Position numbers and translations under genes: made by a program | Origin: an uncultured bacterium | Lineage (GTDB): Bacteria; Oederibacteriota; Oederibacteriia; Oederibacteriales; Oederibacteriaceae | NCBI GenBank assembly: GCA_965112635.1 | Contig: OZ218778.1 | Coordinates: 32,001-96,000 of the forward strand | Direction of reading: 5' to 3' | DNA length: 64,000 nt | Part shown: positions 1-57,625 of the stretch, piece by piece | How positions within the stretch are numbered: the first letter of the stretch is position 1 | How the letters are laid out: each line of letters starts with the position of its first letter | The notes under the pieces: model-generated | Told to the model about the DNA's origin: nothing | Database searches by the model: none | Seen by the model: the letters and a program-made list of their open reading frames with translations, nothing else

Positions 1-2410
1 ACATTTGCAGCATCGCGATGCCTCCCGAGAACGTTCCCTTGGCCACGACCGGGTCCACAGCCGATCTGAAGATATGGTCGCCTTGGATCTCTTTATAGAT
101 CCGGATCTGCTGGATGGCGCTGTCATAGGCGCTTCCTATCTGGTTTATCTGGGTCTTCATCCACGGCACGAAATAAGCGTCCGAATTGACCGTGAACTTC
201 TCAATGAGGACATTGGTGGAGCCCTGGCTCACGGTGCCCGTGGGCGTCAGGCTCGTGCCGTTGACCGTCATGATCCTGGGCTTGGGCGAGATCGTGATAA
301 CGCCGGTGGAGATAGGCAGGCCCGTGGTGGTCACCCAGCAGGGCGAAGAAAATATCTGTCCGCTGGGAGAATTCAGGCTCGCGGTCAGGGTCACCCCTGG
401 GTTAGCCAGGTTGGCCACGTCAAAGACCACGAAGAAACTCTGATACGGCAAGGTCGCCGTGACGGTCAAAGGCGTCAGGGAGGGATTGCTGGCCAAAGGC
501 TGGGCCGTGATGGTCAGGAAACAGATGCCGTTCACAAAAACATTGTTTTGCGGGACGCTCACCAGCGGGTCTTGCTGATACGCTCCCGCAACAGTCTGCC
601 ACCGCATGATTTTATCATTATTGACATCCTGGTAAATACTGACGTCCTGGATGTCCGTGTCGCTGGCTGTGCCCTGATTGATGATCTGGAGGTTTTGCCA
701 CAGGGCCGTGGAGTTATTGGCATTGACCGTAAACATGAACACCGCCGTATTGGTCACGCCCTGCATCATCTGGCTGGGCGACGGGTAACCGCCATTGGTA
801 AAGGTCATCATGGACGGATACTTTTCGATCGTGGCGGCTATTCCGTTCAACCAGGGGAAATGCTTGTTGACCACGAATTTGGGCGGCCCCACCACCACCG
901 AGCTTGTGTTGGTCACGGTCAAGGCGATGGTATCGTTGAGCACGGCCAGATAATTGACATCCAGGCAGATAAAGAAGTTCTGGGGCGTGGTCGTGAATAT
1001 GGGCGGCACCGAGAAATTGATCGTGGCGGTATGGCCCGTGAAGGTGACGTTCGCCGGGCTGACCAGGTCCGCCGTGTCGGTCAGTCCCGTCGCCTGGTTG
1101 AGGACCAGCATCGTATCGGCCAGCGAGGTCGTGGTGATGTTGGTGGGTTTCTCCCTATAGACCTTGATGGCCTTGATGTCCGAGTCCGCGGCTGACCCTA
1201 TCTGGTTGACCGTCAGCTGCTGCCAGAACGCCGTGTTGGAGGTGGTGGAGACGCTCACCTCAAAGAACACCACGTTCGTGTCCCCCTGCACGACTTGCGG
1301 CGGAGCCAGGCTCGTAGAGACCATGTTCACCGGGTCGACCGTCGCCGTGATAGTGATGGTGTGCGTGGTAAAGGGGAAAAAGGCCGGAGGCGCGTTAACA
1401 TAAGAGGGATTATTGATATTAAAGTTTGAGCTCCCGGAAATACCCATATTCAGGCTTCCGCCAATGGTGGCGCTGGGGTCGATGTCATAAGATATAAAGT
1501 AATTCTGGGGACCGGTGCCGATGACTTGGCCTGTGATGGTGATGTTAGCCAGGCCGTTCTTGAACGTGTCATAACCGGACGAGATCATTTGATCCAATCC
1601 CGGCTGGAATAAGCCGCTGCTCGGAGTATCTTTCCATACCTTTATGGCGTTTATGTCACCGTCATGGATGGTACTGGGAACAGTATAGGCGACTTGCAGG
1701 GAGACCAGGGTCTGGGTATAGGCGTTGGTGGACATGGTCATCCTGGCCATGCCCACGTTCTTGGCTCCCTGCCAGACCGAGCTGTTGGGAGTGCCCGGGT
1801 TTCCGGTCCCCGCCACGACCGTGATATCCATGGGTACGACCGTGACCAGGCCCGGCGTGTTACTGATAGGAGTCAGGGTGGTGCCCATGGGGAAGAAGTT
1901 CTGGGCCACCAGGATGGAGCCGTTGGCCGTGTTCACCTGGAACAGGTTGCTGCTGTTGAGGTAAAAGCCCGTCGTGTTATTGAACTGAGCCGTGCCAGCC
2001 ACATCCACGGTCAGGAAATAGACCTGGGAAGGACCGGCCGACAGCGAGGTCAATACCTGCGGCTGGGTCAGCTGGATATTGAAGGTCCCGTTAGAATTCA
2101 GGAAACTGCCGCCGCCGGACGAGGTATTGCCCAGGAAAAGGTCCGCGTTGGTATCCAAAAGACCCGTCCCCTTGATATCTTTCCACAAACTGATGTTGGT
2201 GATATCCGTATTGGGCACGGCCGTGCCGGTCAAGGAACCAGCCACGCTGAGCCAGGTGGAGGTAAAGGCCGTGTTGGTGGCGTTATTGTTCATCAGCAAA
2301 CGCAATAAGGGGATATAGTTGGAACCCTGGGCTACCGAGTTCCCGATCAGCCAAGGGGACTGGTCGGTAGGCTGCGTGATCACGCCGACGACCAAGAGGT
2401 CGATATTCCG
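1..2410 (-). repeat. At least five larger repeats (about 170 aa) with DI..I..(W/Y)K(D/E) motif
   Basis: DITNISLWKDINGTG (~2200), DINAIKVWKD (~1655), DIKAIKVYRE (~1175), DIQDVSIYQDVNND (~640), AIQQIRIYKEIQGD (~110). Confidence 0.7.
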
Positions 2411-5400
2411 CACGATCTGGGCGGTGTTCACCGGGTCGTATTCCACCACGCCGGTGCTGCCGGACAGGCTGCCGTCCGTGGCCGATATTTTGATCGTCTC
2501 GGCGTAGATATCCGTGACCTGGAACTGGGCCACGCCGCGGTCAGAATTCTGGAACGTGTAGGAGGTCGGGTTGGGCACCCCGTTGTTGTTGCAGGAGAAG
2601 CTCACCTTGCCGTTATAGTAGTTGCCGTTGGCCGGGTCCCCGGTGCACAGGTTGTTGTACTGGTCCCTGGCCATGACCGTGATGAGCTTGCCGAGCGTGA
2701 CGTTGGCCGGACCCTGGTAGGTCAGGGTGAACCTGGACGGCGCCGCGTTGGTGATGGTTTCCAGCTGTGAGCTGGGCAGCCAGCCTAGCAACACTGGTGA
2801 CTCGTAGGCCGTCAGGGTCACAAAATTAGCGATAGTGTCCTTATAGTAGAACGGCGCGTTGCTCCCCCCTGATTTGACCGCCAGGGTCTCCTGGCTGACC
2901 CAGTTGACCTGGTCCGTGGAGAACAGACCCTGCGAGCTGGTGGTCTGCATAGCGATGCTGGCGCCGCCGGGGAACGTGGTCTGGTTGCCGTAGAGGTCCT
3001 GCGCCTGCAGGATCATCTGGGTGGAGGACTGGCCGGCCACGGTCTTGGTGGAATTCGTGACAAAGGCCACCCTGGTTACCGGTCCAGGCAAGACCATCTC
3101 TACCTGATTGCCCGGGATCCAACCCTGGGTATTTTCCTTGGCCGTGACCGTGGCGCCTGTCGGCGACACCACGGGGTCTTTGTAATAGAAGTTCACGCTG
3201 GTCATGCCGCCCGTGATGCTCACGCTCATGGGACCGCTGCTCCAGTTGTTCTGGTCAATGGAAAAGCCGTAATTACCGTAGGAATTGCCCGGGCTGGTCG
3301 AAGACAGGTTGATGGCCAGCGTTCCCAGCGCCCCCGGAATGGGGCTGGGGTTGCCGAACTGGTCCTCGGTCTGGGCGGTCATGGTCTGCGAAAAACCCGT
3401 GGCCGGGAACGACTGGGGCGCCGTCGCGAACCCTATCTGGGTGATGGGGCCGGGCAGGACCGTCTGGACCTGGGAGGCCGGCACCCAGAACTGGGCCGGG
3501 CTTCCCACGCCGGTGACGGTCACGTCGGCGTAACCCGCCTTGGTGTCCTCGTAAAAGAACTGGATGGTGTTCTGGCCTTGGCCCATGATGACGCTCGTGA
3601 CCGACAGCCACGGCACGGCCGCGACCGAGAAGTAATGGGCCCAGGGAGAATCCGAGGTCAGGTTAAAGGTCGTGTTGGCTGACACGGTCTGTGGGTTACT
3701 GAACTTGTCCTGCGTTTGCACCGTCATCAAGGTGGAAGGCAAACCTGTGGTCATGATGTTGTCCGGAGGCGAAGTAAAGACCTCTTTGTTGATGACATCG
3801 GGATAGACATTGATGTTCGCTGTGGGTACGGGCGCCAAACCGCTGGAGAAGGCGCTCAGGACCCAGGCTCCGGACCTCTCGTCGTAATATTTGAAACTGG
3901 CGTTGGACGAGCCTTTGGGTATCACGACCTGCTGAGTGCTCTGGGTGGCGGGATTTAACAATTGCTGGTCCGTGAGCGGGTCCCTGAACTGCGTTACCAC
4001 GCCGGTCTGGACCGCCGTCGAGGTGGTGGTCAGGTTGATGGTGATGGCATTCAGGGCGGACTCGTTCTCATACGGGTCATAGGCGGTCACCGTGAACAGG
4101 GCGTCCGTCCCAGCCACGATAAAGGGCGCGGTGGTGGTGAACTCCAGATGGTTGGCCGCTCCGCCGATGGTGGTCATCAGGGGGCAGGTCCCGGACACGT
4201 TGGCCGTCAGGGTCATGTTCAGGGACGCGAGGGTGATGGTCGCCGTGTCTCCGGCCTTGGTCGAGACCGCGTAAAGCACGGGGAGCGTGTTCCCTATCTG
4301 GCCGGTATTGTCCGTGGCCGTGGTGGTCAGGGACAGGGACCCTGACTTGGTGCCGCCCCAATTGATGGTCAGGTTGCAGGCGATGTTGGACCACTGCACG
4401 GCGTTGCCAAAGGTGTCCGCCAGCTGGCCGATGATGTTCACGGAATTGCCCGCCGGGACAGGCAGGGCGGCCGGCGGCCCGGAGAAGGTGAACTTGGTCG
4501 GCAAGCCGGGTATGACCATGATATTGTTCTCCACCCCGGTCAGCCCGGTGGCCACGTCCTGCACCGACACGCTCTGCGTGCCGATGGACCCGTCACCGTT
4601 CCTCTTGACCGTCACCAGGGTGATGGACGGGAAGGTATGGAGCCCGTTATCCGGGCTGGGCCCTGTCGTGGTGAATTGGTAGTTCCCCAGCTGGGTGGGC
4701 AGTTGGGCGTTGAGGTCCGTGCTAAAGAACCTGATATAACCGTTGTATTCCAACACCTGGTTAGCGTAGGGGTCCCTGGCCTCTACCGTGACGCTGCTGC
4801 TGGAGCCCGCCGTGATGGTGAGGGGGATGCCCGTGACCGTGAAATAGCTGATGGCCGTGTTGGTCACCCGGATGGGCGCGCTCATCCCTGCGGTCAGACC
4901 CGTCGTGAGATCCGTAGCCGTGAGCGTGGTCAACTGGGCCGTAAATAGTTTGACTTGGAAGGGATAAGTCCCGTAGCTCAAGTTGGCCGCCCCGGGCAGA
5001 GAACCCACAGCCTGGGTATCATCGCAGCTCAACTGGACTTGCGAGGTCATGGTCACCACGTTGTAATAGCTGTCGATCGAATTGACGGTCGTGGTAAAGG
5101 TGGTCCCGGCGGTCTGGGTCAAAGGCTGGCCGGTCTTGCCCGGAGCGAACGAACCCGGCACGGCCGTTTCACCGGGCAGGATGACCTGCAGGCTACTCGG
5201 GCTGCTGGCATTCATGGTCATATGGTCCGTGCTGGAGTTATAGGAATTGAGGTTGGGATAAGAATAGGCCGTCAGGGTCGTAGCACGCGCTCCGGTAGCC
5301 GTCCTGAAGGTGATGGTAAAGTTCGCGGACCCGAGGTTCGTGGTCGGCGGGAGCGCCGGCAGGCCGGCAAAGAGGTCCGTGGCGGTCAGGGTGACCTGGG

Positions 5401-8400
5401 TGCTGTAGCCCGTGGCCACGTTCCAGTAGGGATCGACCAGGTTGACCGTCACGGTCACGGGCATGCCCACGACCTCGCTGGCCGGCGAGCCCAACTTGCC
5501 GTTGCCGGTCCCAGGCGCGCTGGTCTCTCCGGGCAGCAGTAACTGCAGGTTGGACGGGGGTGCTGGTTTCACCTGGACCGGCGCGCTGGGACCTGGCTGG
5601 ATGGCGTTACCCGTGTCTGTCGCGGTCAGGGTCACCCACTCGGCGGTGACCAGCTTGGTAGAGAGTTGTCCGGTCCCGTTGACCAGGCCCTGGTTGCCGG
5701 CCGGCGGGTTGGAATTGGCATCCGTGGAGGCCAGGGATACCACCGGGTTGTAAGAAGCAATGTTCCAGTTCTCGTCCACGTCACTGACCGTAGTATTGAA
5801 GGCTGTTCCGGCGGTCTCCTGGTCGGGCGAACCGGTCTTGCCGGTCAGGCTTCCCGGGTCCGGCGTTTCACCCGGCAGCAGGACCTGCAGTTTCTTGCCA
5901 GTGTCGGCCTTGACATTGAACAGGGTGCTCTGGTTGGACAGGACGCCGTGGGCCGGGTCCGTGGCCGTGATCCAACGGGTCCAATTCCCGCTGTTGGGAT
6001 TCTGGCTCGTGGCTATATTGAGCGTGACATTATAGGTCGTCGTGCCCCCCGCCATGGCCTGCGGAGCCGGCAGAACTGGATTGGCGTAACCGTCATTGGT
6101 GCTCAAGTTGGTTGTGGTCGTCATGGAATTCACGATATTCCAACGAATATCCACCCCGTTGACCACGACCGGGAAGCTGACCCCGGCGGTCTCCGTGACC
6201 GGCATGCCGGTCTTGCCTGTTAAACTGCCCGCATCAGGATTTTCACCGGGCAATAGGACCTGCAACTGGTACGGTAAGCCGGGCAGGACTGTGACCGCCC
6301 CCGTGCCGGCCTGAAGCCCCTGAGCGTCCATATCCGTGGCGGTCAGGACCACGTTCTTGGCTGTTACCAGGGTGACATTGAACAGGAGCATCCCGTTATT
6401 AAGAGAAGCATTGACCGGCATGGTCGCGTGCAAGTCGGTCGAGGTGATGCCCACCAGCGGGGTAGAGCCTATGCCGGAGACCTGGTTCCAGTTGGCGTCC
6501 ACGGCTGAGACCGTGATGTTGAAGGGTACCCCCGCGTTCTGGACAAAGGCCGTGCCGGAAACACCCAAAGGACTGCCAGGCACACCATACATGCCGGGCA
6601 CCAGGACCTGCAGTTGATAGGGCGCGCCAGCCTGCACCGTGATGGGAGCGCTGGTATAGGAATTAAGGGACGAGACCGGCGCCGTGTCGGTCACGGTCAG
6701 ATGGCTGGTCTTGGCTGTCTTGAAGGTGGCGCTCAATAGAGCGTAACCGGCGACCAGCTTGGTGTTGGGCGGCATGGACCCTGTGGCATAGACATCATCG
6801 GAGGTGGTCGCCACATAAGGCGTGGCCGAGGTCTGGTTCCAGTTGTTGTCCACGGCATACACGCCAAAGGTGTTGGCTGTGCCGGCTGTCCAGACCGAGG
6901 CCGTACCGGATACTCCGGTCCCTGAACCGGGCACATAGCTTTGTCCAGGCAGGACAACGAGCAGTTTGACCGGTGCGCCGGCTAGCACGGTCAGAGCCGA
7001 AGTACGGGCGGTCCAGCCGTTACCCTGGGCGGTCACGGTCATGCTGTTGGTGGCCGTCACGGGCGCTATCGCATATACTCCAGTGCCGTTGTTGAGGCCG
7101 GCCTGGGCTGGCTCCACGTCATAGAGGTCGGAAGTGGACACGGTAACCTGCGGGTTGCTCGTGGGGTTGATATTCCATTCCGCATCCACGGCATTGACCG
7201 TGACCGGGTAGTAAGAACCGGCCGTGAGTTGCTGAGGCGTTCCGCTCCTGCCTGAGGCGGAGCCAGGTACCGAGACTTCGCCCGGAGCCAGGACCTGCAG
7301 CCCTATTGCGTTGCCGGGATTGACTACGAAAGTTGAACTCGTCCCTGTGGCCAGCCCGTAAGACCCGCCATTGCCGGTAATGGTCTGGGTTGCCGCGGTC
7401 CTCAAGGTCGTACTGTAGGATTGCGTGGAAATGCCTGTGAAATTAAGGGTTGTCGGCAAGCCCACCGGGAAATTATCCGAAGTGGTCATATCGACCAGGG
7501 CATAGCTGGGCGCTGACGGGTTGAACCAGTTGTCCACGATATTGACCGTAAAGGTAAAGGCGTACCCTGCGGTTTCAGCCGTGGTCGCGGTCTGGGTCTT
7601 GCCGGTCGGTGATCCCGGCACAGCCTGTTCACCCGGAAGCAGGACCTGCACCTTGGTCGGATTGCCCGGATTAAGGGTGAAGATGGGGCTGGTATAGGGT
7701 GTCAGACCCAGGCCGCTGGGCAGCCACTGGGCCGTCACCGTCAAGCTCCTCTGCCCTGCGGTCAGCAGGGTGATGTTATAGACAGTTTTGCCGTTGCTCA
7801 AGACCTGCGGCCCGAACGAAGGCGCGTAAACGTCATTGCTGGCCAAATTCGAAGTCGGGGTGACCGGTACCCCGAGGGTCACAGGCACCGTGTTCCAGAA
7901 AGTGTCCACAGCCGTGACCGTGACAGGGAAAGCCGTCCCGGCCTGCAGGCTGGTATAAGGCGTCCCGCTCTTGCCCGTGCTGAAACCCGGGTTGGCGGTC
8001 TCGCCGGGTAAGAGGAGCAGCAACTTGATGGGGCTGCCCGGATTGACCGCAAAGAAACTGCTCGTGCCCGCGGCCAAGCCCAGGGTGCTTTCGGTGGCCA
8101 TGATCTGGCGGCCAAAACCCGTGGTGGCCGTATTGAGGGTCACGCCGATGGTGGCTGTGCCGTTGGTCAGGTTCCAGCTTCCCGGAATGGTCAGGAGATT
8201 GGGGTCGTTGGAGGCCAGGGATACGGTCGTCGCGGTGGTGGTCACCATGTTCCAGTAGTTATCCGTGGCGTTCACGGCTACATTGAAAGCGACCCCGGCG
8301 TTTTGCGTCAAGGGCGTGCCCAAAACCCCGCCGGTATAATTGCTGCCCGGTACCGCGGCCTGGCCGGGCAGGACCACCTGCAGCCTGCTGACCGTGTCAT

Positions 8401-11400
8401 GGTTGACAATAAGCGGCGTGGTCACGGACGGGGTATGGGTCCCGTCATTGACCGTGACGGTCGAGGTCCCGGCGATCCTGAGGGTCAGGGCACCGGAGTA
8501 GTTCCTGGTGCCGTTGACCAGTTGCTGGACCCCTGGCAGTGTCGCGAAATTATCCGTGCTGGTAAAGGTGATCGAGGGCTGCTGGGCCGGCAGCAGATTG
8601 GCCTTGTTCCAATAATTATCCGTGACCCAAACCTGGGCGCTGAAAGCATGCCCCGCGGTCAGCACAGCAGGCGTCCCTAACCTGCCGTTATTGGCCATAT
8701 TGCCGGGATCATAAACCTCATTGGGGACAAGGATAAGCAGTTTGGTATCCGTATTGGCCGTGACCGTTACCAAAGAGCTGATTGCTTGCGGATTGGCCAA
8801 CAAGTGGGCCGTGTCTGTGGCAGATATGGTGAGGGGCCTGCCTGCCGTGATCAGGGTCGCGTAGAAAGTACCCGTGCCACTGGCTAAATAGGCCGGAAAT
8901 ACAGGGAAATTGGCGTTCCCATAGATGTCCGAAGAAGAAAGGGCCACCTGCGGGTTGGCGGTCATATCTATGTTCCAGTGAGCGTCAACGGCGTTGACCG
9001 TGACGGTCACCGGGTTGCCCGCGACTTGATTGATGATATTGGACGAATCCTTCCCTGTCGAGCTGCCCGGCACGGCCACCTCGCCCGGCAGGAGGATCTG
9101 CAGCTGCGAGGCCGGGGCATTGGTCACCGTGATGGCTGGCGCGTTGTTGGCGTAAAGCGATTCGGTCGCTTCAAAGCCGGTCAGGGTCAAACTCCCGGCC
9201 GTGTAAGGCGTATAACTGAAAACTCCGATCCCTCCGGCCAGGCCCATCTGGGCCGGATTCAACTGGGCATAATCATCCGTGGAGTCAATGCCCACGGTCG
9301 ATGTCGCGGTCAGGTTCACGTTCCAGTAGTGGTCCACGGCGTTGACAGTGATGCTGTAGGATGTGCCCACCATCATTGGGCTGGCTGAACCGGTATAGCC
9401 CGTGGTCAGGCTGCCCGGGTCAGGGGTTTGGCCGGGAACAAGGATCTGCACCTGGTAAGCGCCGCCCGGATAAACGCCGAACCTCGCGCTGTTGCAGGTG
9501 GAAGTCAGACTAGTGATCTTGATCTGTGCGGTCAGGGTCGTGTATTGGGCTGTATAGAGCGTGACCGGTATATTACCGCTGGTGCCGTTGGTCAGAGAGA
9601 CCACGCCCTGGTTTGGCGCGTGCGGGTCTGTGGAGGTGATGGTCACGTTAGTATAATTGGTATAATTGGCGGTCGTGGCCACGTTCCAGTTGGAGTCCAC
9701 CGCGTTGACCTTGATGTTAAACGACACGCCGGCGGTCGGGAAATTGGGCGTCCCGGTCTTGCCCGAAGCTGTCCCCGGCGCCGCGTTTTCGCCAGGCATC
9801 AGGAGCTGGAGTTTGACCGGCGGCCCAGGCTGGACCGGGATGGTCCCTGAGCCGGTCGGCCCAAGGTTCCACCCGTAACCGGCAGGCAGGCCGACCTGGG
9901 CTGTGGCCGTCACGACCCTGTTCCCCACGGTGATCAGGGTGATGGGCATGGTCGTGGTCCCCTGGTAAAGCGCGGTCGCCACCCCCGGATTGGGCACATT
10001 GGGATCGTTGCTAAGAAGAGCCGCGGTCGGGGTCACCGGGATGCCGTTCCAGGACTGGACCTTATTCCAGTAGGGGTCCACGGCATTGACGGTCATACCA
10101 AAAGATGTCCCGGCAGTCTGGGTCACGGGCAAAGCCGTGGCCAATTTGCCTTTATCAGAGGTATTGCCCGGGTCAGCGATTTCGCCCGGAGCCAGGATCT
10201 GCAGTTTGGTCACGGCACTCGGGGTAACGCTCACCATCGTGCTGGTGTCGCCGTTCAGGGCACCGGGATTCGGGTCCGTATTATTTGCGTAAATGACCTG
10301 GTTGGTGGCGGTATAAAGCTTGACCCCGTTGGTCATGGTGATAACACCGCTGGAAAACCCTGTTTCACCCGGCAAGGAAGCGTAATGCCCGGGGTCGGTG
10401 CTCAAGGTCACGGCATCGGACGAATCCGTGGTGTCGATATTATAGTAGGGGTCAACGGCATAAACTTTGGCCGTAAAGGCCTGGCCGGCGGTCTGGGCGA
10501 ACGGCGTGCCGGTCTTGCCCGAAGCAGAGCCGGGCTCGGCCGATTCGCCGGGCAGCAGGATCTGGACCCCTACGGCCGGCTGGGCCTTGACCGTGAAATA
10601 GGGGCTGGCATAGGTGGTCATCGCTCCGGCGTTGTCCGAGGCCGTGATGCTGGTGCTCTGGGCCGTCAACAGGGTCACAGGATTGAAAATATAAGATCCG
10701 GAAAGCAGGTTGTGGCTGCCCAGGTTGGGCACATTGGGATCGTTGGAGGTCAGGTTGACCAGCACATTGGAAGCCGTGGTGACGTTGTTCCAATAGGCGT
10801 CAGCCAGGTTGACCGTCACTCCAGGAATCACACCATTCGTTAAAGGAACTCCGGCGGTCTGGGCGAACGGCGTGCCGGTCTTGCCCGAAGCAGAGCCGGG
10901 CTCGGCCGATTCGCCGGGCAGCAGGACCAGGAGCTTGACGGGAGAACTGACCGATACCGTGAAGGCCGCGGAATTCTGGCCCTGGATGTTCTGGTCCGCG
11001 TCCACGACCTGGAAATTCCACTGGCCGGCTGTCTTGATGACCGCGTTGAAGGTGGTCGTGCCCGAGCTATAGGTCTTGACCGTCGACTGGTCGTTGACAT
11101 TGACCGGGTTAAAGTCCGTGTATCCGTTGCCCGAGGACATGTAGTTGGCCCAGATCTGGCCATGATACAAGCCGGTCGTGACCACGTTCCACAGGGCGTC
11201 CGTGACATTGGCCGTGATGGTCAGGTAGTTGCCGGCCGTCTGGTTGCTGGGGCTGCCGGTCTTGCCTGACGCGCTGCCTGGAGCCGCGTTTTCGCCGGGC
11301 ATCAGGATCTGCATATAGGTCACCGTGCCTGGCGTGACCACCAGTCCCGGGCTGCTCGATTTGACCAGGTTGTAGGATGAGGCCGTGATGGTTGTGCTAT

Positions 11401-35400: not shown

Positions 35401-38400
35401 GTCGATGCCGCTGTAGGTCGGCGGCAAGGCGATCTGGAACTGGCTGTAAGCGCCGATGCCCGAGCCGCTCCCCGCGGCCGCCGTGATGGTCACGCTGTAA
35501 TACCCCGTGGCCGCGCTGTTGCTGACCGTGGCGGTCAGGGTGATGGAGTGGGCATCCCAGGCCTGGATGGTGTACGGCCAGATATTGGCATTACCGGTAG
35601 CCTGGTCCAAAAGCAGGGACCCGGTCTGGACCCCAAAATAACCGTCGGGATCGAAAATATTGACCGTGGCGTTCGTCGCTCCCTCACCCAGGGAGACCGG
35701 GGTCATCACCCCGTGGCTCCCAGCATTGGGTTTGGGCACCACGTAGAACGCGCTGCCCGTGACCAGTTTGCCGCCATTGTCCCCGTTGGTGATGGTCAGG
35801 AATCGGTTGGGAGAGGAGGCCGTGGCCGCGGCCGGGTCCACGTTGACCGTCAGGACGATAAGGCTGGGGCTCCAGTTATAGTTCGTGACCGTGATGCCGC
35901 CGCCGCTGAAGCTCACGGTCCCCTGGTTGGTCCCAAAGTTACTGCCGTAAATGGTCAGCTGCTGCTGGGTGGCGCCCTGGCCCAGGTAGTTGAGGTTGGC
36001 GGAGTTGGTGATGCTGACAAAAGTGGGTGCGCTGACGATCTGGAACTTGCTGAAGGCGCCGATGCCCTGGCCGCTGCTCGTCGCCGCGGTGATGGTCACG
36101 CTGTAATATCCCGGTACCGCGCTGCTGCTCACTGTGGCGGTCATCGTAATGGAATGGGCGTCCCAGGTCGTGGGGTTATAGGCCGTGATATTGCTGTTCC
36201 CCGTGGCTGAATCGAGCAAAAGCGAACCCATGCTGGAGCCGAAATAGCCGTCCGGATCGAACAAATTGAGCGTGGCCGTGGCACCCTGTCCGATGCTCCC
36301 TGCAGTCATCACGGTGTGGTTGTTGGCGTTGGGTTTGGGCACCACGTAGAACACATTGCCGGTGGTGACCTGTCCGCCATTGTCTCCATTGGTGATCGTG
36401 AAGGTCCGGTTGGCCACCGCGGATGTAGAGGCGGCCGGGTCCACGCTGACCGTCAGGACGATCTGGCCGCTGCCCCAGTTGTAGTTGGTGATGGTGATGC
36501 CGCCGCCGCTGATGCTTACGGTGCCCTGGTGCACGCCAAAATAACTCCCGTTGATGGTGAGGGTGGCCCCCGTGGCCCCCTGGCCCAGGTAGCTCGGACT
36601 GCTATTGTCATAGGTCGGCGGCACTGCGATCTGGAACTGGTTGAACACGCCGATACCCTGCCCGCTGCTCGTCGCTGCCGTGATCGTGACCGCATAGTAT
36701 CCGACCACCGCCGAACCGCTGATATTGGCTGTCAGGGTTATGGAATGAGCGTCCCAGGCCTTGATGTTATACGAGGTGACATTGGAATTGCCCGATCCGG
36801 CGTCCAGAAGAAGCGACCCTATATTGGCCCCAAAATACCCGTCAGGATCAAAGAGGTTTATGGTCGCCCCGGAAGCGCCCTGCCCCACTGCCGCAGGGAT
36901 CATGATGGTGTGGTTGTTGGCGTTGGGCTTGGGGACAATATAAAAGATCGGGCTAGTCGTCAGCTGGCCGTCGTTGTCGCTGCAAAAGATGGTCAGGGTC
37001 CGGTTGGGGGACCCAGCTGTGTTGGCACTGGGGTCCACATTGACGGTCAGCGTGATGAGGGTGCTGCTCCAGACCGTGTTGGTGATGGTGATGCCGCCGC
37101 CGCTGAAAGTCACGCTCCCGGCGCTGCCGAAATTAGTCCCCACGATGTTGACGGTTGCGCCTGTTGCGCCCTGGCCAAGATAAGCCGTGGCCCCTCCGTT
37201 AATAGAGGTAAAGGTCGGCGCGCCGACCACATGAAGGAGGTTGAAATAACCCACCCCGCTGCCGTTGTTAGGCGAGGCAGTAATGGTCAGGGCGTAGTAG
37301 CCCAGCACCGCCGTGCTGCTGACCGAGGAGGTCAGGGTGATGGAATTGGCGCTCCAGCGGCTTACCAGGTAGCTGGTGAAATTAGTGTTGCCGCTGGCGG
37401 CATCTAATAGAACAGTGCCGGTATTGGACCCGAAATACCCGTCAGGGTCAAAGAGATTGATGGTCGCCCCTGACGCGCCCTGCCCGATATTGGCCGGGGT
37501 GACCACGGTGTGGCTGCCCGCGTTTGGCCGCGGGATAACATAAAATTCATTGGGAGTGGTCAATTGGCCGCCGTTATCCCCGTTGATAATGGTCAGGGTC
37601 CGGTTGGGCGAGGAACCTGTCGTGGCCCCAGTGGCCACGTTGACGGTCAGGACAATGGTCGTGCTGCTCCAGCTGTAATTGGTAATGACAATACCGCCTC
37701 CGCTGAAGATCACGCTCCCCTGGCTGTTGCCGAAATTGCCGCCTTGGATGGTCAGGGTGGCAGCGGTCGCGCCTTGGCCCAGGAGGGGATCACCGTTGAC
37801 GTTCTTGACCGTGTTAAAGGTGGGCAGGCCGACCACTTGGAGTTGGTTAAAGGTGCCGACCCCGGCGCCGCTGGCGCTAGCTGCCGTGATGGTGACCGCG
37901 TAGTAGCCGGTCACGGCCGCGTTGCTCACCGTGGCGCTGATGGTGATGGAATGAGCGTCCCAGGCCTGGATCGGGTAGCTGTTAATGTTGGCGTTACCCG
38001 TGGCGGTGTCTATCACCAGGGAACCCGTGGCTGCACCAAAATAACCGTCAGGGTCAAAGATATTGATGATTTCGCCGCTGGCTCCCTGCCCGACCGAGAG
38101 AGGCGTGATGACCGCGTGGCTTCCCGCGTTGGGCCTGGGCACCACATAGAACACGCTGCCGGTGGTCAACTGCCCGTTGTTATCCCCATTAATAATAGTA
38201 AGGCTCCGGTTCGCCGAACCCGAGGTCGTCGCCGTCGAGGCCACATTTACGTTCAACACGATCTGGTTCGGACCCCACGAATACACCGTGTCCGTCACGT
38301 CCCCGCCGCCGCTGAAGATAACTGTCCCGGTCTTGACCCCGAAATTGCTGCCATATATAGTCAGTTGCTGGTTCGTCGCGCCCTGGCCCAGGTAGTTCAA

Positions 38401-41400
38401 GTTCGCCGTATTCGTAATGCTCACAAAGGTCGGTTTAGCGGCTACCTGGAATCCGTTATATGCTCCCATCCCGGACCCATTTGCCGCTGCAGCCGTGATG
38501 GTCACTGCGTAATACCCCGCGACCGCGCTCCCCGCCACGGTCGCCTGCAAAGTGATGGAATTGGCGCTCCAGTTCTGGATGGAATAGGAAGTAATATTGG
38601 CGTTCCCTGTCGCTGCATCCAGCAGCAAAGTCCCCGTATTGGACCCGAAATATCCGTTGATGTCATACAGGTTGACCGTCACCCCGCTGGCTCCCTGGCC
38701 CAGGCTGCTGGGTGTCATCACCGTGGTCCCGCTGGAGTTGGGCCCGGGAACCACGTAGAACACATTGCTTGTCGTGAGCTGCCCTTTGTTCCCGCCGTTG
38801 GTGATGGTGAGGATCCGGTTGGGAGAACCTGAGGTCGCGGCGTTCGTGGCCACGCTGACCGTCATCACAATGGAACTGTTGCTCCATGTGGGATAACCCG
38901 TCACGCTGAGTCCTGTGCCGCTGAAGGTCACCGTGCCGGAGCTCCCCAGACCACCCCCCGAAATGGTAAGGGTGGCATTGGTCGCCCCCTGGCCCAGGTA
39001 ACTCTGGCTGAGACTGCTGTAGCTGGGGCCGTTCACCACCTGGAATGAGTTGAAATATCCGACCCCTGCCCCGCTCGCCGTGGCCGCTGTGATGGTGACC
39101 GTGTAATAACCCGTCCCTGCGCTGTTGCTTACCGTGGCCGACAGGGTGATGGAATTGGCGCTCCAGTTCTGGATGGAATACGAGGTGATATTGGCGTTGC
39201 CTGAGGCGGTATCAAGCTGGACCGACCCGGTGTTGGCCCCAAAATAACCGTCAGGGTCAAATAGATTGATAATAGAGTTCGAGGCGCCCTGCCCGACGGA
39301 ACTGGGCGTCATCACCGTATGGCTGCCGCCGTTGGGCTTGGGCACGATATAGAAGATGGGGCTCGTCGTTAACTGGCCCAGGTTATCGTTATTGATGATG
39401 GTGATGGTCCTGTTAGGCGAGCCCGCGGTGTTGGCAGCGGGGTCCACGTTGACGGTCAGCGTGATGAGGGTGCCGCTCCAGACCGTGTTGGTGATGGTAA
39501 TGCCGCCGCCACTGATGATGACACTGCCACCGCTTCCGAAATTCGTCCCCACGATGTTGATGGTCGCGCCGGTCGCACCCTGGCCAAGGTAGGCCGTGGC
39601 CCCTCCGTTAATAGAGGTAAAGGTCGGCGCGCCGACCACATGCAGAAGGTTCACGGAACCTATCCCGCTGCCGTTGTTCGCGTTGGCCGTGAGGGTCACC
39701 GCGTAATAGCCCTGGACCGCCGCGCTGGCCACCGAGGCTGTCAGGGTGATGGAATTGGCGCTCCAACGGCTCACCAGGTAGCTGGTAAAGTTGGTGTTCC
39801 CACTGGCCGCGTCCAGCAACACCGTGCCGGCATTGTTCCCGAAATACCCATCAGGATCAAAGAGGTTGATGGTCGCCCCTGACGCGCCCTGGCCGATATT
39901 GCCCGGGGTGACCACGGTGTGGCTGCCTGCGTTCGGCCGAGGGATGACATAGAACTCGTTAGGGGTGGTCAGCTGGCCGCCGTTATCCCCGTTGAGGATG
40001 GTCAGGGTCCGGTTGGGCGACCCGCCGGTCGTGGCATTGGACGCCACGTTGACCGTAAGGACTATAGTGGTATTGCTCCAGCTGTAATTGGTGATGACAA
40101 TGCCGCCTCCGCTGAAGATAACGCTTCCCTGGCTGTTGCCGAAATTACCCCCATCGATGGTCAGGGTCGCGCTGGCCGCCCCCTGGCCCAGAAGGGGATC
40201 ACCGTTGATATTCTTGATGGTGTTGAATGTAGGCAGGCTGGACACGCGCAACTGATTAAAGACTCCGACCCCGGCTCCGCCGCTCGCGGCCGCCGTGATC
40301 GTCACCGAATAATAACCGGTATTAGCGCCGTTGCTGACCGTGGCGCTGATAGTGATGGAATGAGCGTCCCAGGCCTGGATCGGGTAGCTGTTAATGTTGG
40401 CGTTGCCGGTGGCCGTGTCGATGGCGAGCGAACCCACCCCATTGCCGAAATAACCGTCAGGGTCAAAGATATTGATGATCTGGCCGCTGGCTCCCTGGCC
40501 CACCGAGGACGGCGTTATCACGGTATGGCTCCCGCCATTGGGCCGGGGCACCACATAGAACACGCTGCCGGTGGTCAACTGCCCGTTGTTATCCCCATTA
40601 ATAATAGTAAGGCTCCGGTTCGCCGAACCCGAGGTCGTCGCTGTCGAGGCCACATTTACGTTCAACACGATCTGGTTCGGACCCCACGAATACACCGTGT
40701 CCGTCACGTCCCCGCCGCCGCTGAAGGTCACGCTCCCGGTCTTGACCCCAAAATTACTGCCATAAATAGTCAGTTGCTGGTTCGTCGCGCCCTGGCCCAA
40801 GTAGTTCAAGTTCGCCGTATTCGTAATGCTCACAAAGGTCGGTTTAGCGGCTACCTGGAATCCGTTATATGCTCCCATCCCGGACCCATTTGCCGCTGCC
40901 GCTGTGATGGTCACCGCGTAATACCCCGCGACCGCGCCTCCGGCCACGCTCGCCTGTAAAGTGATGGAATTGGCGCTCCAGTTCTGGATGGAGTAAGAGG
41001 TGATGTTCGTGTTGCCCGGTGAATCCAGCAACAGGGTCCCCGTATTGGACCCGAAATATCCGTTGATGTCATACAGGTTGACCGTCACCCCGCTGGCTCC
41101 CTGTCCCAGGCTGAGAGGCGTCATCACGGTCGTTCCGCTCGTATTCGGACCCGGCACCACGTAAAAGACATTCCCGGTGGTGACCTGGCCGCCGGTGGTT
41201 CCATTGATGATGTTAAGGGTCCGGTTGGCGGAAATAGAGGTCGTGGCATTGGAGGCCACACTGACATTCATGCTGATAGAACTGCTGTTCCAGGAGTTAT
41301 AACTGGTCACACTGACCCCGCTCCCGCTGATGGTCACGGTCCCGCTGCTCCCAAATCCTCCTCCAGAAAGGGTGATCACCGCGTTGGTCGCTCCCTGGCC

Positions 41401-44400
41401 CAGAAAAGCCTGGCTGATCCCGGAATAAGTGGGAGCGCTGGCCACCTGGAATTGGTTGAAATACCCTATCCCTGCGCCATTGGCCGTGGCTGCCGTGATG
41501 GTGACCGTGTAATAACCCGTGGCAGCGCTAGCACTGACCGTGGCCGACAGGGTTATGGAATAGGCGCTCCAGTTCTGGATGGAATAAGAGGTAATATTGG
41601 CATTGCTCGAGGCATAATCTAAAAGCAATGAGCCGATGGTGGACCCAAAATAACCGTCCGTATCGTAAAGATTGACCGTTACATTGGACGCCCCCTGGCC
41701 TACCGAGGACGGCGTTATGACGGCATGACTCCCGCCATTGGGTCTGGGCACCACATAGAATACGTTCCCGGTGGTCAACTGGCCGTTGTTATCGCCATTA
41801 ATAATAGTAAGGGTCCGGTTCGCCGAACCCGAGGTCGTCGCTGTCGAAGCCGCGTTCACGGTCAAGACGATCTGGCTCGGCGCCCATGAATACACCGTGT
41901 CCGTCACATCCCCCCCGCCGCTAAAGGTCACGCTTCCCGTCTTGACCCCAAAATTGCTCCCATAGATGGTCATCTGCTGGTTGGTCGCGCCCTGGCCCAG
42001 GTAGTTAAGGTTCGCGGTATTGGTGATACTGACAAAGGTCGGTTTGGCCGCCACCTGGAATCCATTAAAAGCTCCTACCCCAGAACCGTTGGCTGCGGCC
42101 GCCGTCATCGTCACCGCGTAATATCCTACGGTGGCATTGCTGATCACAGTCGCGGTCAAGGTGATGGAGTGGGCATCCCAGGTCTGTAATGTGTAGGGGT
42201 TGATATTAGTGTTCCCTGAGGCGGCATCCAGCAACAGAGTGCCGGTGTTGGAACCAAAATTCCCGTTAACGTCGTACAAATTAACCGTTATCCCGCTGGC
42301 TCCCTGACCTAGGACAGCCGGCGTCATCACGGTCGACCCGCTCGCGTTCGGGCTGGGTACCACATAGAATACGTTCCCCGTCGTAACTACCCCGCCATTG
42401 GTTCTATTAACAATGGTCAGGGTCCGGTTGGCCGAGATCGAGGTGGTCGCGTTGTTGGCCACGGTCACATTCATACTGATGGAACTGTTGTTCCAGGAGT
42501 TATAACTGGTCACGCTGACCCCGGTCCCGCTCACGGTCACGGTCCCGCTGCTCCCAAATCCTCCTCCGGAGATGGTCACCACCGCATTGGTCGCACCCTG
42601 GCCCAAGTAGGCCTGGCTGATACTGGTATAGCTTGGCCCGCTCACCACCCAAAACGAGTTGAAATACCCGATGCCCGCTCCGTTGGCCGTAGCAGCGGTA
42701 ATGGTCACTGTGTAATACCCGGCCACGGCATTTGTGGCTGCCGTAGCCTGCAGGGTAATGGAATTAGCGCTCCAATTTTGGACCGTATAGGAAGAGATAT
42801 TGGCATTGCCAGTGGCTGAATCCAGCAAAAGAGTCCCGGTATTGGATCCAAATTTGGCATTGGGATCAAAAAGATTGACCGTCAGGTTTGATGCCCCCTG
42901 CCCCAGCGAAGAAGGGGTCATGACCGTGGAACTGAGCGCATTGGGAGCGTTGACCACATAAAAAACATTCCCGGTCGTGACCTGGCCTCCGTTATCCCCG
43001 TTGACAATGGTCAGGGTCCGATTCGGGGAGGATGCGGTCGCCGCATTACTGGCCACGTTCACTGTCACGATGATCTGGCTGGTGCTCCAACTGTAGTTGG
43101 TGACCGTGATGTTGCCTCCGCTGAAGGTCACTGAACCCTGGTTGGTCCCAAAACTGCCCCCGTAAATGGTCAACTGCTGTTGGTAAGCGCCCTGGCCCAG
43201 GTAGGTGAGATTTGCAGTATTGGTGATACTAATAAAGGAAGGAGCCGGAGCGATCTTGAACCCGTTAAAAGCCCCCACTCCATACCCGCTGCTACCCGCC
43301 GCAGTCATGGTCAAGGCATAATAACCGGTGGTGGCGGAACTGCTGATATTGGCTGTCAGGGTGATGGAATTGGCGCTCCAGCCTCCTGAGTTTATATAAT
43401 AACTCGTCACATTTTGGTTGCCGGTCGCGGAATCCACCAGAACAGAACCTTGGGCGGTCCCAAAAAACCCGTTGGGGTCAAAAAGATTGATGGTGGCGTT
43501 GGTCGCTCCCTGGCCGATGGTCGGTGGAGACACATTGGTCTTGCCGTTGACGGTCATGATCGTGGAATTATAGGAATTAGGCCCGTTGATGATGGTCAAG
43601 GCATTGGAGCTAGTGCTTACGCCGTTGTCGGTGCTCCGCTTGACCGTGATGCTATAAGGCCCGGTGGTGGCATTGGAAGCCACGCTCACGGTGCAGACAA
43701 TGGTCCCGGAAACCCACGAGGTATAGCCGGTCACACTGACCCCGGACCCAAAGGAGAGGGTTCCCTGGGTATTTCCAAATCCGCTTCCCTGGATGGTCAA
43801 AGAGGTATGAGCGCCCTGGCCCAGGGTCGAGGGGGAGACTGTACTGACCACGGGCGCCGAAGAAATGGTCAATTTGCCCGAATTATCGGTGTTTATCCCC
43901 AGGTCGCTGCCGTTCTGGATGGTGATGGAAGGGTTTCCAGTCGTGGCGTAAGTGCAATCCAGGTTGGCCACAATATACTGGGGGCTTGACCCGCCGTGCC
44001 AAACCGCTGACCCTATAATATTGATATTGTTGCCAAAACTTAAATTACCGCTGGTCCCGAAATCCGAGGCGTCCGAAGTGATGGTCACGCTCACATTGGT
44101 GGCGCCCACACCTATGGTGCTGGGCGAGATGGAGGCAATGGACGGATGGGCTGTGATGGTGATCCGGCCGTAAAACACCGCCTGGGCATAACCCTGGCTG
44201 GTGCCGGTATAGAGGGTGAAATTCTGGGGCCCGGTCGTGGGAAAAGTGGTCCCTCCGTTGGCCGACAGGGTCAGGTTCATCCCGATGGCGCTGCTGCTCC
44301 AGCCTCCGGTGTAGCCTGTCACGCTGATATTGGTGTCCGTGAACTTGACATAACCCCCGGTCTGGTTGGACCCGAAATTAGTGCCTCCTAGGGTAATGGT

Positions 44401-47400
44401 CAGCTGGGCCCCCTGGCCGACCGGCGCTCCCAGAGTCAGCCCTGTAGGAGTCTCGCTGACAAAGGTGGGTGGCGCAAGCACGGAAAACAGCGTAGCCACT
44501 TTAGTAACACCGTAATTATCACTATTGATGACCGTAATTGTGCAGGGGCCGGTCACGACCCCTCCACCTGACAAGTCCATGGTCAAGGGGATAAAGGTGG
44601 AATTCCCGGTCGATCCCACCGCATCATTAACCCCGTCGTTAAAAGACACGCTGGGAGTACTGTTGCCGAAATTACTGCCGTAGAGGGTCATCCCCTGGTT
44701 GGAGCATCCGGCTCCCAGGCTGGAGGTGCTGAAAGAGGTCTGGACACTGGTCACAGAGGGAGCATTGGCCACGGTCAAGGGATTGGGGGAGGAGATGACG
44801 GCTTTGCCCTGGTTGTCGTTGTTGGTGATGGTGATACTGCAGTTCCCCGCCGTAGCTGTACTGGCCACCTGCACGGACATAGTGATGGTGGTGGAGGTCG
44901 TCAACAGGACCGTTCCGGTCACTCCGGCATTGCCAAAGGCCACGGTTGCATTGGTGGAGCTGGAGGGGTTGTTGACCGTCCCGTTGAAACCAGTGCCATT
45001 GATGGTCAGGGTCGTGGAAGCTCCGGCGCCCAGAGTGGATGGGGATACTGAGGAGATGGTCGGAGCAGCGTCAATATCCAGATAATTGGCCCCATCCGAC
45101 TTATAACCTCCGGTTTGAGGATTGTTCACCCAGACCGTGGCCGGCCCGCTGGCAACGGCATTGCAACTGATCACCGCAACGATGGAGTTCGTGGCCCAGC
45201 TCGTGATACTGTTGACGGCGATTGCCCCAACGCCTGCTGTGATACTAAGATTATTGACGGTCCCGCCCGTGCCAAAAGTACTGCCACTCCCAGTGATAGT
45301 GATGGTTTGGTTCTGTGCCCCGACCCCGATGTCCATGGGCTGGACATTGGTAATGGTCGGGCCGGCCACAATGGTGATGAATTGGTAATAGGCTCCCACG
45401 GATTGCCAAGTAGGAGTTGAATTAGGTTCGGTCAAATACACGGAGATGCCGGACCCTACGTCAGAATCTCCGGCGCCTTTCTGGAAAGTCGGGACCCAGG
45501 TGACGGAACTGTTATTGTACGCAGTAAGGGAGGTGATGGTGAAATCATTATCATAACCGCCGTAATCAATAGTCCCAGCGGCCAGGGCATTATAATTTCC
45601 AGCACCGCCGGTAAATTTGACCGAGATGGAGGTATAGCCCAAACCGTTCCCCACACCGATAAAAGCAGGGTTAGGCGTGACGCTGGTCAGGTTGGGAGGC
45701 GCAAAAAACTTGAGAAAAGCGGCGTTGCTCATTCCCGCCGAAGTACCGCCATAATTCGGAAGGACCGTGACTGTGGGATTATTGGCCGCGACACCTCCCA
45801 GGGACATGTCCACCAAGACCGTGATCTGGCTGTCGGACCACGACACGATACTCTGGACGATATTGGTCCCATTGCTGACGATGGACACGCTACCGTTGAA
45901 TCCGGTGCCGGATGCGGTGGTATCCCCAAAATGGGGGTTGGCACCGCCGGGATAGATGGTAATGTCCCTTAAATTTTGGCCGTTGAGTGCGAACGCCTGC
46001 AGACCCATGTTCACGGGACTGCAGGGAACGGCGTTGGATAAGGTGGGTAAGGGGGCGACAAAAAGCGCGCCTTGGGCCGTGCTGACACCTCCATTGGTGC
46101 CGCTATGGACTTGCGCGGTTCTGGTCCCCGAAACCGCACCTGCCGTCGTGACCAGCACCTGGATCTGGGTGTCGGACCAGCTAACGTAACTGGCTGAATT
46201 GCAGTTTGTCCCGCTCCAGGACACAGTACCCTGTACATTACCAAAGCCGCTGCCGGTAATGATAACCGGGTAATTGGCGACCGTGGTGGCGATGTCGTTA
46301 TTTTGGCCCAAAAAGTTTCCTGCGGTGATGTTGGTGATGGTGGCCGAATAGGGCACGACCTGGAGGGTCTGGTTGCTCGAAGGATAGGTCGGGAAATACT
46401 GGTCCACATACCCTTGGCCTCCCCAGGGAGCAGCGTCGGTCCTACCCGTGATGGTGAGGGTGTAATAAGTCGGATTGGCTGCATTGGATACATCGACCGT
46501 GATGGTGATGCTCTGTGCGTTGGCCCAGTTTAATACCTGGCTCGGAAAAGCGGTGGAGTCCAAAAAGCAGGTGGCACCCGTGCCATGTGCCCCAAAAGTC
46601 CCGTTGGGATCGTAGAAATTGATGGGGACACCGGTAGCCCCTTGTCCGATCTGGGTATTGCCCGCGACCGAATTGACGGTGATGACCACGCCTCCGCTAT
46701 AGCAAGGCGGAGCGATAATGGTGGCCGTACCGGTGACTGTGGCGTAATCCTGCCATTTCGTGGAGTCGTTATTATTGGTCCAGATCACGGGAAAAGTGCT
46801 TCCCACCACGGCAGAGCATGTCCGGCATCCGGAATTAGTTTGGACCCCGTTGAGGACAAAGGTGGTATTGGTCGACGGCGAAGTTGGGCCGGTAAAGGTG
46901 GGAGCATTGGCGCCTGTCATCACGGACATTTGCGGGGTGCCGCCTATGAGCAGGCCGCCATTGACATTTTCAGTTATATTGCAGGGATATCCGTCGTACC
47001 CGGCGTTCTGTCCAATGTTGAGGACTAGATGCGGTTGGACATAAAAAGGCACGCCGTTAGTGTTTAGGCCAAAGGCTGTGACCGTGATGTTGCCCAGGCC
47101 CTGGGCGTTGGCAGGAATGGTCGCGGTGACCCTGGTATCGACATTGGGGATACCCGAATAATTGTTGCAACCGGTCGTAGCGACCGCACCAGGGAAGGTA
47201 AATACAGAACTGATGGGTGCACCCTGCTTTTGACCAAAATCTGCGCCGTAAATGGCGATGATATCACCCTGATAACCGTAGACGATGTTCGTAGGGCCGT
47301 AATACTTATTGGCTGTGGTGTTGACAACCATGCTCGTGTAAGCCGAACAGGTCAGACTGCCGTAAATATAAGGCTGAACATTCAAAACACCGTTGGCTTC

Positions 47401-48235: not shown

Positions 48236-48251
48236 AGCAATTCCCGTGCCA
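48236..48251 (-). promoter_or_regulatory. Sigma-54 (RpoN) -24/-12 promoter of the giant gene
   Basis: Minus strand reads TGGCACGGGAATTGCT, matching TGGCACG-N4-TTGCW exactly. It is about 80 nt upstream of the ATG, correctly oriented and adjacent to a sigma-54 activator gene. Confidence 0.9.
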
Positions 48252-55030: not shown

Positions 55031-55077
55031 ACCTCTACCTCCTTAGGAATATTTCGTAGCGGGTCAACTATCCCCGC

Positions 55078-56703: not shown

Positions 56704-56763
56704 CCCCCTTGTGCAATCAGAATACAATGAATCTTAACGCCCCACCTCACCGTGGAACAACGA

Positions 56764-57597: not shown

Positions 57598-57625
57598 TCA
57601 GCCTTCCCTCTCCAAAGATTTGATC

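Follow-up and report, generated by a model that had tools for sequence, protein, structure and literature searches.

Three very long open reading frames (ORFs) follow one another on the minus strand of this stretch of DNA, and the question they raise is whether they encode three proteins, the remains of one, or a single intact protein of unusual size. The stretch (the window, 64,000 nucleotides) covers positions 32,001 to 96,000 of contig OZ218778.1, G000:C1:32001-96000 in the numbering used here, from the single-contig 2.88-Mb genome of an uncultured peat bacterium of the Oederibacteriota. The original prediction, made from the letters of the window, was a single gene of more than 48 kb coding for over 16,000 amino acids (aa), and our analysis supports a single giant gene as the best reading. 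We consider it likely that this gene is intact and encodes a surface fibre of 16,931 residues that is exported, anchored and used as an adhesin along the pathway proposed below, and that both breaks in its frame are insertion errors of the assembly.

A single gene across three reading frames

The three frames adjoin one another, and one extra base marks each of the two junctions:

31393..48156, minus strand: frame 1, 5,587 aa (ORF list)
21966..31517, minus strand: frame 2, 3,183 aa (ORF list)
2..22393, minus strand: frame 3, 7,464 aa, running off the window (ORF list)
31482..31485, minus strand: break 1, one extra base, ACAG before GTC, in a TIG domain with model positions 1-93 covered
22394..22397, minus strand: break 2, one extra base, ACAG before GTG, in a TIG domain with model positions 2-93 covered

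The start codon, ATG 48156, lies three codons past the preceding in-frame stop and has AAGGGG five bases ahead of it. No in-frame stop was found within 2..22393 in the ORF reading of the window, and the frame that leaves the window goes on, in the whole genome, to a stop at G000:C1:29359-29361 (= L001:17359-17361), 2,638 nt past the window start, where the joined frame ends in a C-terminal sorting domain resembling those used in type IX secretion (T9SS). From start to stop the gene measures 50,798 nt, 1.8% of the genome, and two single extra bases are all that interrupts it. With an X at each break the product is 5,558 + 3,029 + 8,344 = 16,931 aa long, with a mass of 1.72 MDa, a pI of 4.5 and an enrichment in Thr, Gly, Ser, Ala, Asn, and Val. 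The best match of the gene to itself over at least 150 nt reaches 74% identity, and 349 of its 50,768 31-mers recur. Since the repeats have diverged to this extent, their copy number is not a product of assembly collapse or expansion; the repeats are old and the copy number is trustworthy.

Both frame changes are +1 and have the same form, a Thr codon ACA, the extra base, and a Val codon GTN (window 31485-31479 and 22397-22391). The paralogous repeats aligned at each break, five or six per site, read ACN-GTN, with one base fewer at exactly the break columns. The TIG model is covered end to end across each X, so that the repeat register is continuous through both 1-nt breaks, as had been noticed from the sequence. 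Independent DNA was sought among the contigs of four public peat-metagenome runs (X1, X2, X4, and X5), compared over 22200-31700. The extra base at 22395 is absent from a 300-nt contig of run X1 and from a 161-nt contig of run X4, with no other difference in either; the two runs belong to different studies, and X2 and X5 gave no cover at break 2.

Some features of this comparison weigh against reading the breaks as errors. The two contigs at break 2 have depths below 5 each, and single contigs can err; besides, X1 is possibly the sample of origin. At break 1 (bin 31393-31700), each of the four runs had a depth of 0, no metagenome contig matched an exact pattern of 26 nt taken from beside the break, and a protein-based metagenome scan found only relatives of 35-42% identity, none of them near-identical. 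With no independent cover, break 1 is judged by analogy with break 2 and with the other breaks of the record described below. By the sameness of the lesion, the completeness of the domain around it and those other breaks, it would most likely be an error too, and single-base insertion by the assembly is the most likely origin of both.

Domain architecture

The census of domains was made with models built from the protein itself, counting as full a copy that covers at least 70% of the model. From the N-terminus to the C-terminus, the gene encodes:

48022..48156, minus strand: start codon (ATG 48156) and residues 1-45, a Sec-type signal peptide by eye
47308..48021, minus strand: orphan N-terminal tip, residues 46-283 (238 aa), no family
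19526..47307, minus strand: 94 TIG/IPT-like domains, residues 284-9545 (Pfam PF01833, Qn_am_d_aIII, self-built model)
17186..19522, minus strand: seven repeats of ~111 aa, residues 9547-10325 (self-built model)
4880..17176, minus strand: 34 full 116-aa "PGE" repeats, ~4,000 residues (self-built model)
2771..4876, minus strand: five invasin/Big_1-like domains, residues 14429-15130 (self-built model)
1..2341, minus strand: first part of eight repeats of 160-175 aa, residues 15274-16637, which continue outside the window (self-built model)
L001:17362-18249, outside the window: Fn3-like stretch and C-terminal sorting domain

Domain order and numbers (94, 7, 34, 5, and 8) nearly match those predicted from the window (about 95, 7, 34, several, and at least 5). 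The single signal peptide expected at 48156 is also there by visual inspection: residues 1-45 open with a stretch rich in Lys and continue into a hydrophobic core of 17 residues and a Ser-Ser-Ala/Ala site. The tip that follows it gave no Pfam match up to E 1 and has no paralogue in the genome.

The TIG array holds both breaks. In 93 of its 94 domains the model is covered to at least 70%, and three short non-TIG inserts lie near its start. PF01833 exceeded its cut-off in five of the eight pieces scanned (E 5.9e-11 to 9.9e-95). An old internal duplication of 5 kb, with 74% identity at an offset of 2,406 nt, was also seen in the array (gene offsets 6293-11332 and 8699-13717, window ~34440-41864), as was a super-repeat of two domains at residues ~2100-4000.

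The seven 111-aa repeats are probably immunoglobulin (Ig)-like; their sole Pfam hint is a sub-threshold match to Big_13 (E 0.057). The PGE model found 37 matches in the protein, 34 of them full and three partial. Among 7,999 candidates scored with the PGE profile, 295 proteins matched at E<=1e-5; they come from Elusimicrobiota, Bacteroidota, Ignavibacteriales, Eisenbacteria, and other groups, and many also carry Big_1/Invasin_D3 domains and end in FlgD_ig or Por_Secre_tail. Considering this spread over phyla and the co-occurrence with such tails, PGE appears to be an unnamed Ig-like module that occurs widely in surface proteins with such tails. For the invasin-like domains, Invasin_D3 matched only at E 0.13. 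Single-domain Pfam scans gave sub-threshold matches only (Big_13, MG4/Big_1, Invasin_D3, and BNR_assoc_N), and profile searches found no relative of solved structure, the best values (E 0.027 for PGE and 0.13 for the 175-aa repeat) being taken as chance. In the Pfam scans of the protein there was no enzyme domain, only beta-sandwich repeats and the secretion tail. About 150 beta-sandwich domains in tandem would form a fibre of several hundred nanometres, about 0.5 micrometre, the length that had been estimated from the window.

Probable regulation and upstream genes

Upstream of the start codon we found the following elements and genes:

48237..48251, minus strand: sigma-54 -24/-12 promoter, exact TGGCAC-N5-TTGC, ~80 nt upstream of the start codon
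48392..48427, no strand assigned: two tandem dyads, TGGTCA-N5-TGACCA, 141-190 nt upstream of the promoter (repeat finding)
48471..49833, minus strand: NtrC-type sigma-54 activator with receiver, AAA+ and HTH_8 domains (Pfam)
49848..52598, minus strand: sensor histidine kinase with PD40 propeller, PAS, HisKA and HATPase_c domains (Pfam)

The promoter is the only exact match to the sigma-54 consensus in the window, where shuffled sequences predict 0.15, and one of two in the 2.88-Mb genome, which also encodes rpoN. The dyads are candidate binding sites for the sigma-54 activator, and the kinase is its probable partner. A promoter with upstream dyads and an NtrC-type activator and kinase is the textbook sigma-54 layout, and it would serve the giant gene, whose transcription may start from this promoter under the control of the adjacent two-component pair. 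The other exact consensus of the genome lies at G000:C1:2099583-2099597. Further upstream of the kinase, on the same strand, 53189-59404 codes for a pair of Reg_prop beta-propeller proteins, of 613 and 592 aa, and for a pair of proteins with HEAT repeats, of 549 and 277 aa.

Proposed secretion and anchoring

The N-terminus had been described as Sec-type and unlike that of type-I-secreted RTX adhesins. This agrees with the signal peptide read by eye, and no RTX or type I secretion system (T1SS) family was found in any Pfam scan of the protein. At the other end, the last ~90 residues resemble the tails of T9SS cargo: they match FlgD_ig with 25.8 bits (cut-off 27), Por_Secre_tail (PF18962) with 17.2 (27) and TIGR04183 with 20.1 (23), at E values of 4.5e-4 to 1.1e-5, and the C-terminal part of the PorU model with 33.6 bits (E 1.1e-8). 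The domain closes the protein, a position that it also takes in 80 ORFs of this genome. A candidate for the outer membrane translocon is also encoded:

L030:1017-6557 (G000:C1:115017-120557): SprA/Sov T9SS translocon, 1,846 aa (TIGR04189, 244 bits, cut-off 200)

The sprA gene stands alone beside lptF and lptG. Proteins of the SprA type are found in 92 of the 99 genomes of the phylum (91 of the 98 others), and the presence of SprA, outer membrane barrels and LptFG indicates that the host is diderm.

The next gene on the same strand, 245 nt downstream of the giant gene and with no terminator-like site in the gap, codes for a barrel of the PorV/PorQ family fused to TPR repeats. It scores 116.5 bits with PorV_fam (cut-off 90) and stays under the equivalog cut-offs (PorV 32.6 vs 250, PorQ 59.8 vs 220, and PorV2 69.3 vs 325); no PorP/SprF model matched it at E<=0.001 in the NCBIfam scan. 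Self-trained models run over the whole genome counted 80 ORFs with a T9SS/FlgD_ig-like tail at their end, and 37 for PorV-family barrels. A same-strand barrel lies within 800 nt of 26 of the 80 tail ORFs, usually just downstream, and the giant gene follows this pairing rule of its genome.

Other very long frames of the genome encode 6,084 aa (2639996-2658247), 4,518 aa (1840224-1853777), 3,740 aa, and 2,870 aa, the first two each followed by a paralogue of the barrel-TPR gene. In the window itself, a frame of 1,819 aa with DUF7948, SBBP beta-propeller repeats and a tail ends at the far end (63180-64000, continuing into L029:2-4639).

Taken in order, the pathway that we propose would run as follows. 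The protein would cross the inner membrane by Sec; its T9SS-like C-terminal domain would be recognised and the chain would cross the outer membrane through the SprA/Sov-type translocon; the PorV/PorQ-family barrel-TPR protein encoded downstream would hold it at the surface, in parallel to SprB held by SprF; and the protein would act as an adhesin, its orphan tip carried on the tandem beta-sandwich domains to a distance of several hundred nanometres from the cell.

Several observations speak against this pathway. The C-terminal domain falls below every curated cut-off, and in a pairwise comparison it matched the tail of a Pedobacter T9SS cargo at E 0.13 only. The sprA gene lies ~35 kb from the giant gene, outside the cluster. 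GldK, GldL, and GldM gave no match in the genome with TIGR03513, TIGR03517, PF12081, and TIGR03525, nor was the catalytic part of the PorU sortase among the matches, since NF033707 aligned only over its C-terminal domain portion, ~984-1095 (at 19 places); for two of the four GldK/L/M models, no control genome gave a match either, which leaves the sensitivity of those searches in doubt. As for the adhesive role, residues 1-500 searched against 1.84 billion representatives recovered nothing beyond the query protein and a single weak match to TIG, and for a tip that has no homologue a ligand cannot be proposed. The lineage is deep, with no family-level relative in the genome collection, and our literature search found no papers on T9SS parts in it. 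Matches to its GMP synthase, at 61-68% identity, came from many phyla and did not place it, and a pattern scan for SprA gave no match.

A flagellar-type motor beside the giant gene

Behind the giant gene and the barrel, and on the same strand, come genes for a protein resembling FliF and FliG, for MotA and MotB, and for an 824-aa protein of no family. The FliF-FliG-like rotor protein combines, in 581 aa, the FliG_M and FliG_C domains with two membrane helices and a region that matches YscJ_FliF_C weakly. This order suggests another reading of the intact gene, in which the fibre is the load or the substrate of the rotor and MotA/MotB, and the motor replaces GldLM/PorLM in secretion or movement. 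A second rotor protein of the genome points the same way, for it occurs with MotAB, a TPR protein, a barrel, and the sorting-domain protein of 3,740 aa, and GldL and GldM were not found. However, adjacency is the sole evidence, in two instances from one genome. Of the 98 other genomes of the phylum, only 3 have full-length homologues of the rotor protein, and there these adjoin CheA, MCP, an AAA_22 ATPase and proteins of 1,200-1,600 aa of no family, and no barrel or MotAB was found beside them among the ORFs scanned. In addition, SprA is present in 91 of those 98 genomes, so that the secretion system does not need the motor. On balance we regard such a coupling as unlikely.

A third FliG of the genome, an ordinary one with MotAB, is located elsewhere, and a search for loci related to the rotor protein brought up ordinary FliG only. 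Three other genomes of the phylum have FliF-FliG-like proteins, at L024 (G002:C74), L026 (G045:C24) and L025 (G028:C50); a TPR fusion was seen in some of them, and tandem pairs in two of these genomes. Among the papers listed in our literature search, including the available portion of PMC12505986, we found no cluster of PorV beside a non-flagellar FliG/MotA.

Single-base breaks elsewhere in the record

Returning to a single intact gene with two assembly errors, we found comparable breaks in other genes of the record. rpoN (sigma-54, G000:C1:1483011-1484454) is in two frames, split near 1484206-1484228, with one extra C by eye. In the NtrC-type activator adjoining the giant gene, an extra base near 49611-49616 divides the receiver domain midway, and the N-terminal half of that domain reads in another frame. 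In a GH78 rhamnosidase (L112, G000:C1:727914-733914) the break interrupts the canonical order of domains, and the hexamer discussed below falls within the frame overlap. Finally, a tail-bearing protein of 460 + 1,033 aa (L113, G000:C1:216179-223179) is split at ACCTGT of the + strand, G000:C1:219679, a site fixed by the internal duplication of the protein. These single-base breaks in rpoN, the activator and two further genes make assembly error the best reading of the breaks in the giant gene as well. The 64-kb window holds three breaks, about one per 20 kb, and at that rate about two are expected in a gene of 50.8 kb.

Both breaks of the giant gene share the minus-strand hexamer ACAGGT, which occurs seven times in the gene. 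The four breaks at this hexamer all read ACC-T-GT on the + strand of the record, with the genes on different strands; such uniformity across differently oriented genes fits an error in the record better than a translational signal. The genome-wide counts stand on the other side of the balance. Deleting the hexamer base merged long frames at 12 of 1,229 ACCTGT/ACAGGT sites, and ten control hexamers gave 3-25 merged sites among 1,096-3,648, so that breaks at ACCTGT/ACAGGT are not enriched across the genome and the link with the motif rests on the four cases. An earlier genome scan had flagged 3 of 1,231 ACAGGT sites, two of them the breaks of the giant gene (controls 0-6), and strand counts are near equal for both ACCGT/ACGGT and ACCTGT/ACAGGT. 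A pervasive motif-specific error was therefore dropped, given flagged counts within the range of the control hexamers and balanced strand counts, which leaves the four cases and further breaks outside the motif. The flagged sites at RecJ, at an amino-acid permease beside SpoU, and at GH57 were checked with Pfam and rejected, since they appear to be ordinary neighbouring genes, and the 4,518-aa ORF has not lost its tail to a frameshift, for it ends in a tail of its own.

The breaks could instead be real mutations of a recent pseudogene, from which the first 5,558 residues and a short out-of-frame tail would be made, a product with a signal peptide but no sorting domain, with intact alleles persisting in other cells. 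The deposited record does contain both extra bases, a public protein collection lists segment 1 as a protein of 5,587 aa, the contigs that lack base 22395 could come from other strains, and break 1 has no independent cover. Nevertheless, the conserved genes for rpoN, the activator and the rhamnosidase are broken alike in the same record, the same kind of insertion recurs at the same hexamer at four sites, and no stop or further damage is found in the 34 kb downstream of break 1. Decay of the gene thus seems quite improbable.

It is also very hard to sustain that the cell itself joins the frames, by programmed +1 frameshifting of the prfB type or by four-base decoding at ACA-G-GTN, despite the shared ACAGGT and the +1 direction of both breaks. 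Four other in-frame ACA-GGT sites of the gene need normal reading, neither a four-base anticodon nor an unusual anticodon loop was found among the 48 tRNAs, and the identical insertion also disrupts a gene that is read in the opposite sense, as ACC-T-GTG. Moreover, the base at 22395 is missing from two independent contigs, and the 3 of 1,231 ACAGGT sites that were flagged lie within the control range of 0-6. Among the tRNAs, ARAGORN reported two unusually long ones, Ala-GGC of 96 nt (G000:C1:1279584-1279679) and Lys-TTT of 97 nt (G000:C1:1910050-1910146).

Three separate genes, for proteins of ~5,600, 3,200, and 8,300 residues, can be practically dismissed: the ORF lists do give three frames with possible ATG/GTG starts at 31517 and 22393, but these starts fall in mid-domain (model positions ~86 and ~65 of 93), no signal peptide was seen by eye at the start of segment 2 or 3 (a check that the original prediction had named), the sorting domain would be on the last product only, and independent DNA reads through from frame 2 into frame 3.

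Comparison with other giant surface proteins

The intact giant gene and its barrel are most readily compared with SprB and SprF of Flavobacterium johnsoniae. According to the available part of PMC9143113, SprB is a repetitive T9SS cargo of 669 kDa, co-expressed with and bound by the adjacent barrel SprF, which anchors it. Each system has a repetitive giant surface protein that starts with a Sec signal and ends in a T9SS domain (T9SS-like here), and the gene that follows directly on its strand codes for a FadL-type barrel of 14 strands; SprA is present here too. The differences are as clear. The protein described here is ~2.6 times heavier (1.72 MDa vs 669 kDa) and its tail is type A/FlgD_ig-like, whereas SprB has a type B tail; SprF belongs to the PorP/SprF family, while the barrel here is of the PorV/PorQ family and fused to TPR; and GldK, GldL, and GldM of the SprB system were not found in this genome. 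Nor is the host a member of the Bacteroidota: the nearest named homologues of its SprA (27-30% identity) are from metagenome-assembled genomes of candidate division FCPU426 and Elusimicrobiota.

SiiE, MpAFP/MpIBP, and LapA have no N-terminal signal peptide and are exported by a T1SS through a C-terminal signal. The giant protein differs from such adhesins in its Sec-type start, its T9SS-like tail and the lack of an RTX match, and its neighbours are the barrel, the rotor protein and MotAB, not the ABC, MFP and TolC genes that accompany a T1SS RTX adhesin. What it shares with SiiE, MpAFP/MpIBP, and LapA are strings of Ig-like domains, which in those proteins hold the binding region away from the cell, as far as the consulted sections of the literature go; SiiE (595 kDa) and MpAFP/MpIBP (1.5 MDa) are described as such strings in the sections of PMC6272769 and PMC3492233 available to us. 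The giant protein is heavier than SprB (669 kDa), SiiE (595 kDa), and MpAFP (1.5 MDa). A Mobiluncus mulieris adhesin also consists of tens of tandem Ig-like domains and is the largest protein of its proteome; it is given 7,651 residues in the accessible text of PMC10619420, where it is sortase-anchored and internally cross-linked. It comes from a Gram-positive cell, whereas the host here is diderm.

In the available portion of West-Roberts et al. (10.1101/2023.11.21.568195), proteins of at least 10,000 aa are reported as frequent in several phyla, Elusimicrobiota among them, and giants of more than 30,000 aa occur in Omnitrophota; the work links its giants to cell-wall degradation by predatory bacteria. 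The original description of the protein as exceptionally large therefore stands in comparison with LapA, SiiE, and SprB but not against these reports. Those giants are likewise very long ORFs from metagenome-derived genomes; in contrast to them, no enzyme domain was found here, and 16,931 aa is far under the 30,000-aa class.

Biological significance

Long genes gather assembly errors by their sheer length, and annotation as three "genes" or as a pseudogene hides one of the largest bacterial proteins. What emerges is most likely a giant T9SS-type fibre with its own barrel, unusual in its context and in the missing parts of the usual T9SS. A cargo ~2.6 times as heavy as SprB seems to make use of an SprA-type translocon and a dedicated PorV-family barrel outside the Bacteroidota, and since the usual T9SS motor, ring and sortase were undetected in the genome, the question arises of what a minimal T9SS is and what powers it. 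The sigma-54 promoter and the sensor kinase of its own offer a handle on the timing of fibre production. As for power, the same genome has a second place where a giant tail protein lies together with a TPR-bearing barrel of PorV type and with a rotor and stator of flagellar type. If the connection were true, a motor derived from the flagellum would be a second, independent solution to the role that GldLM plays in gliding Bacteroidota.

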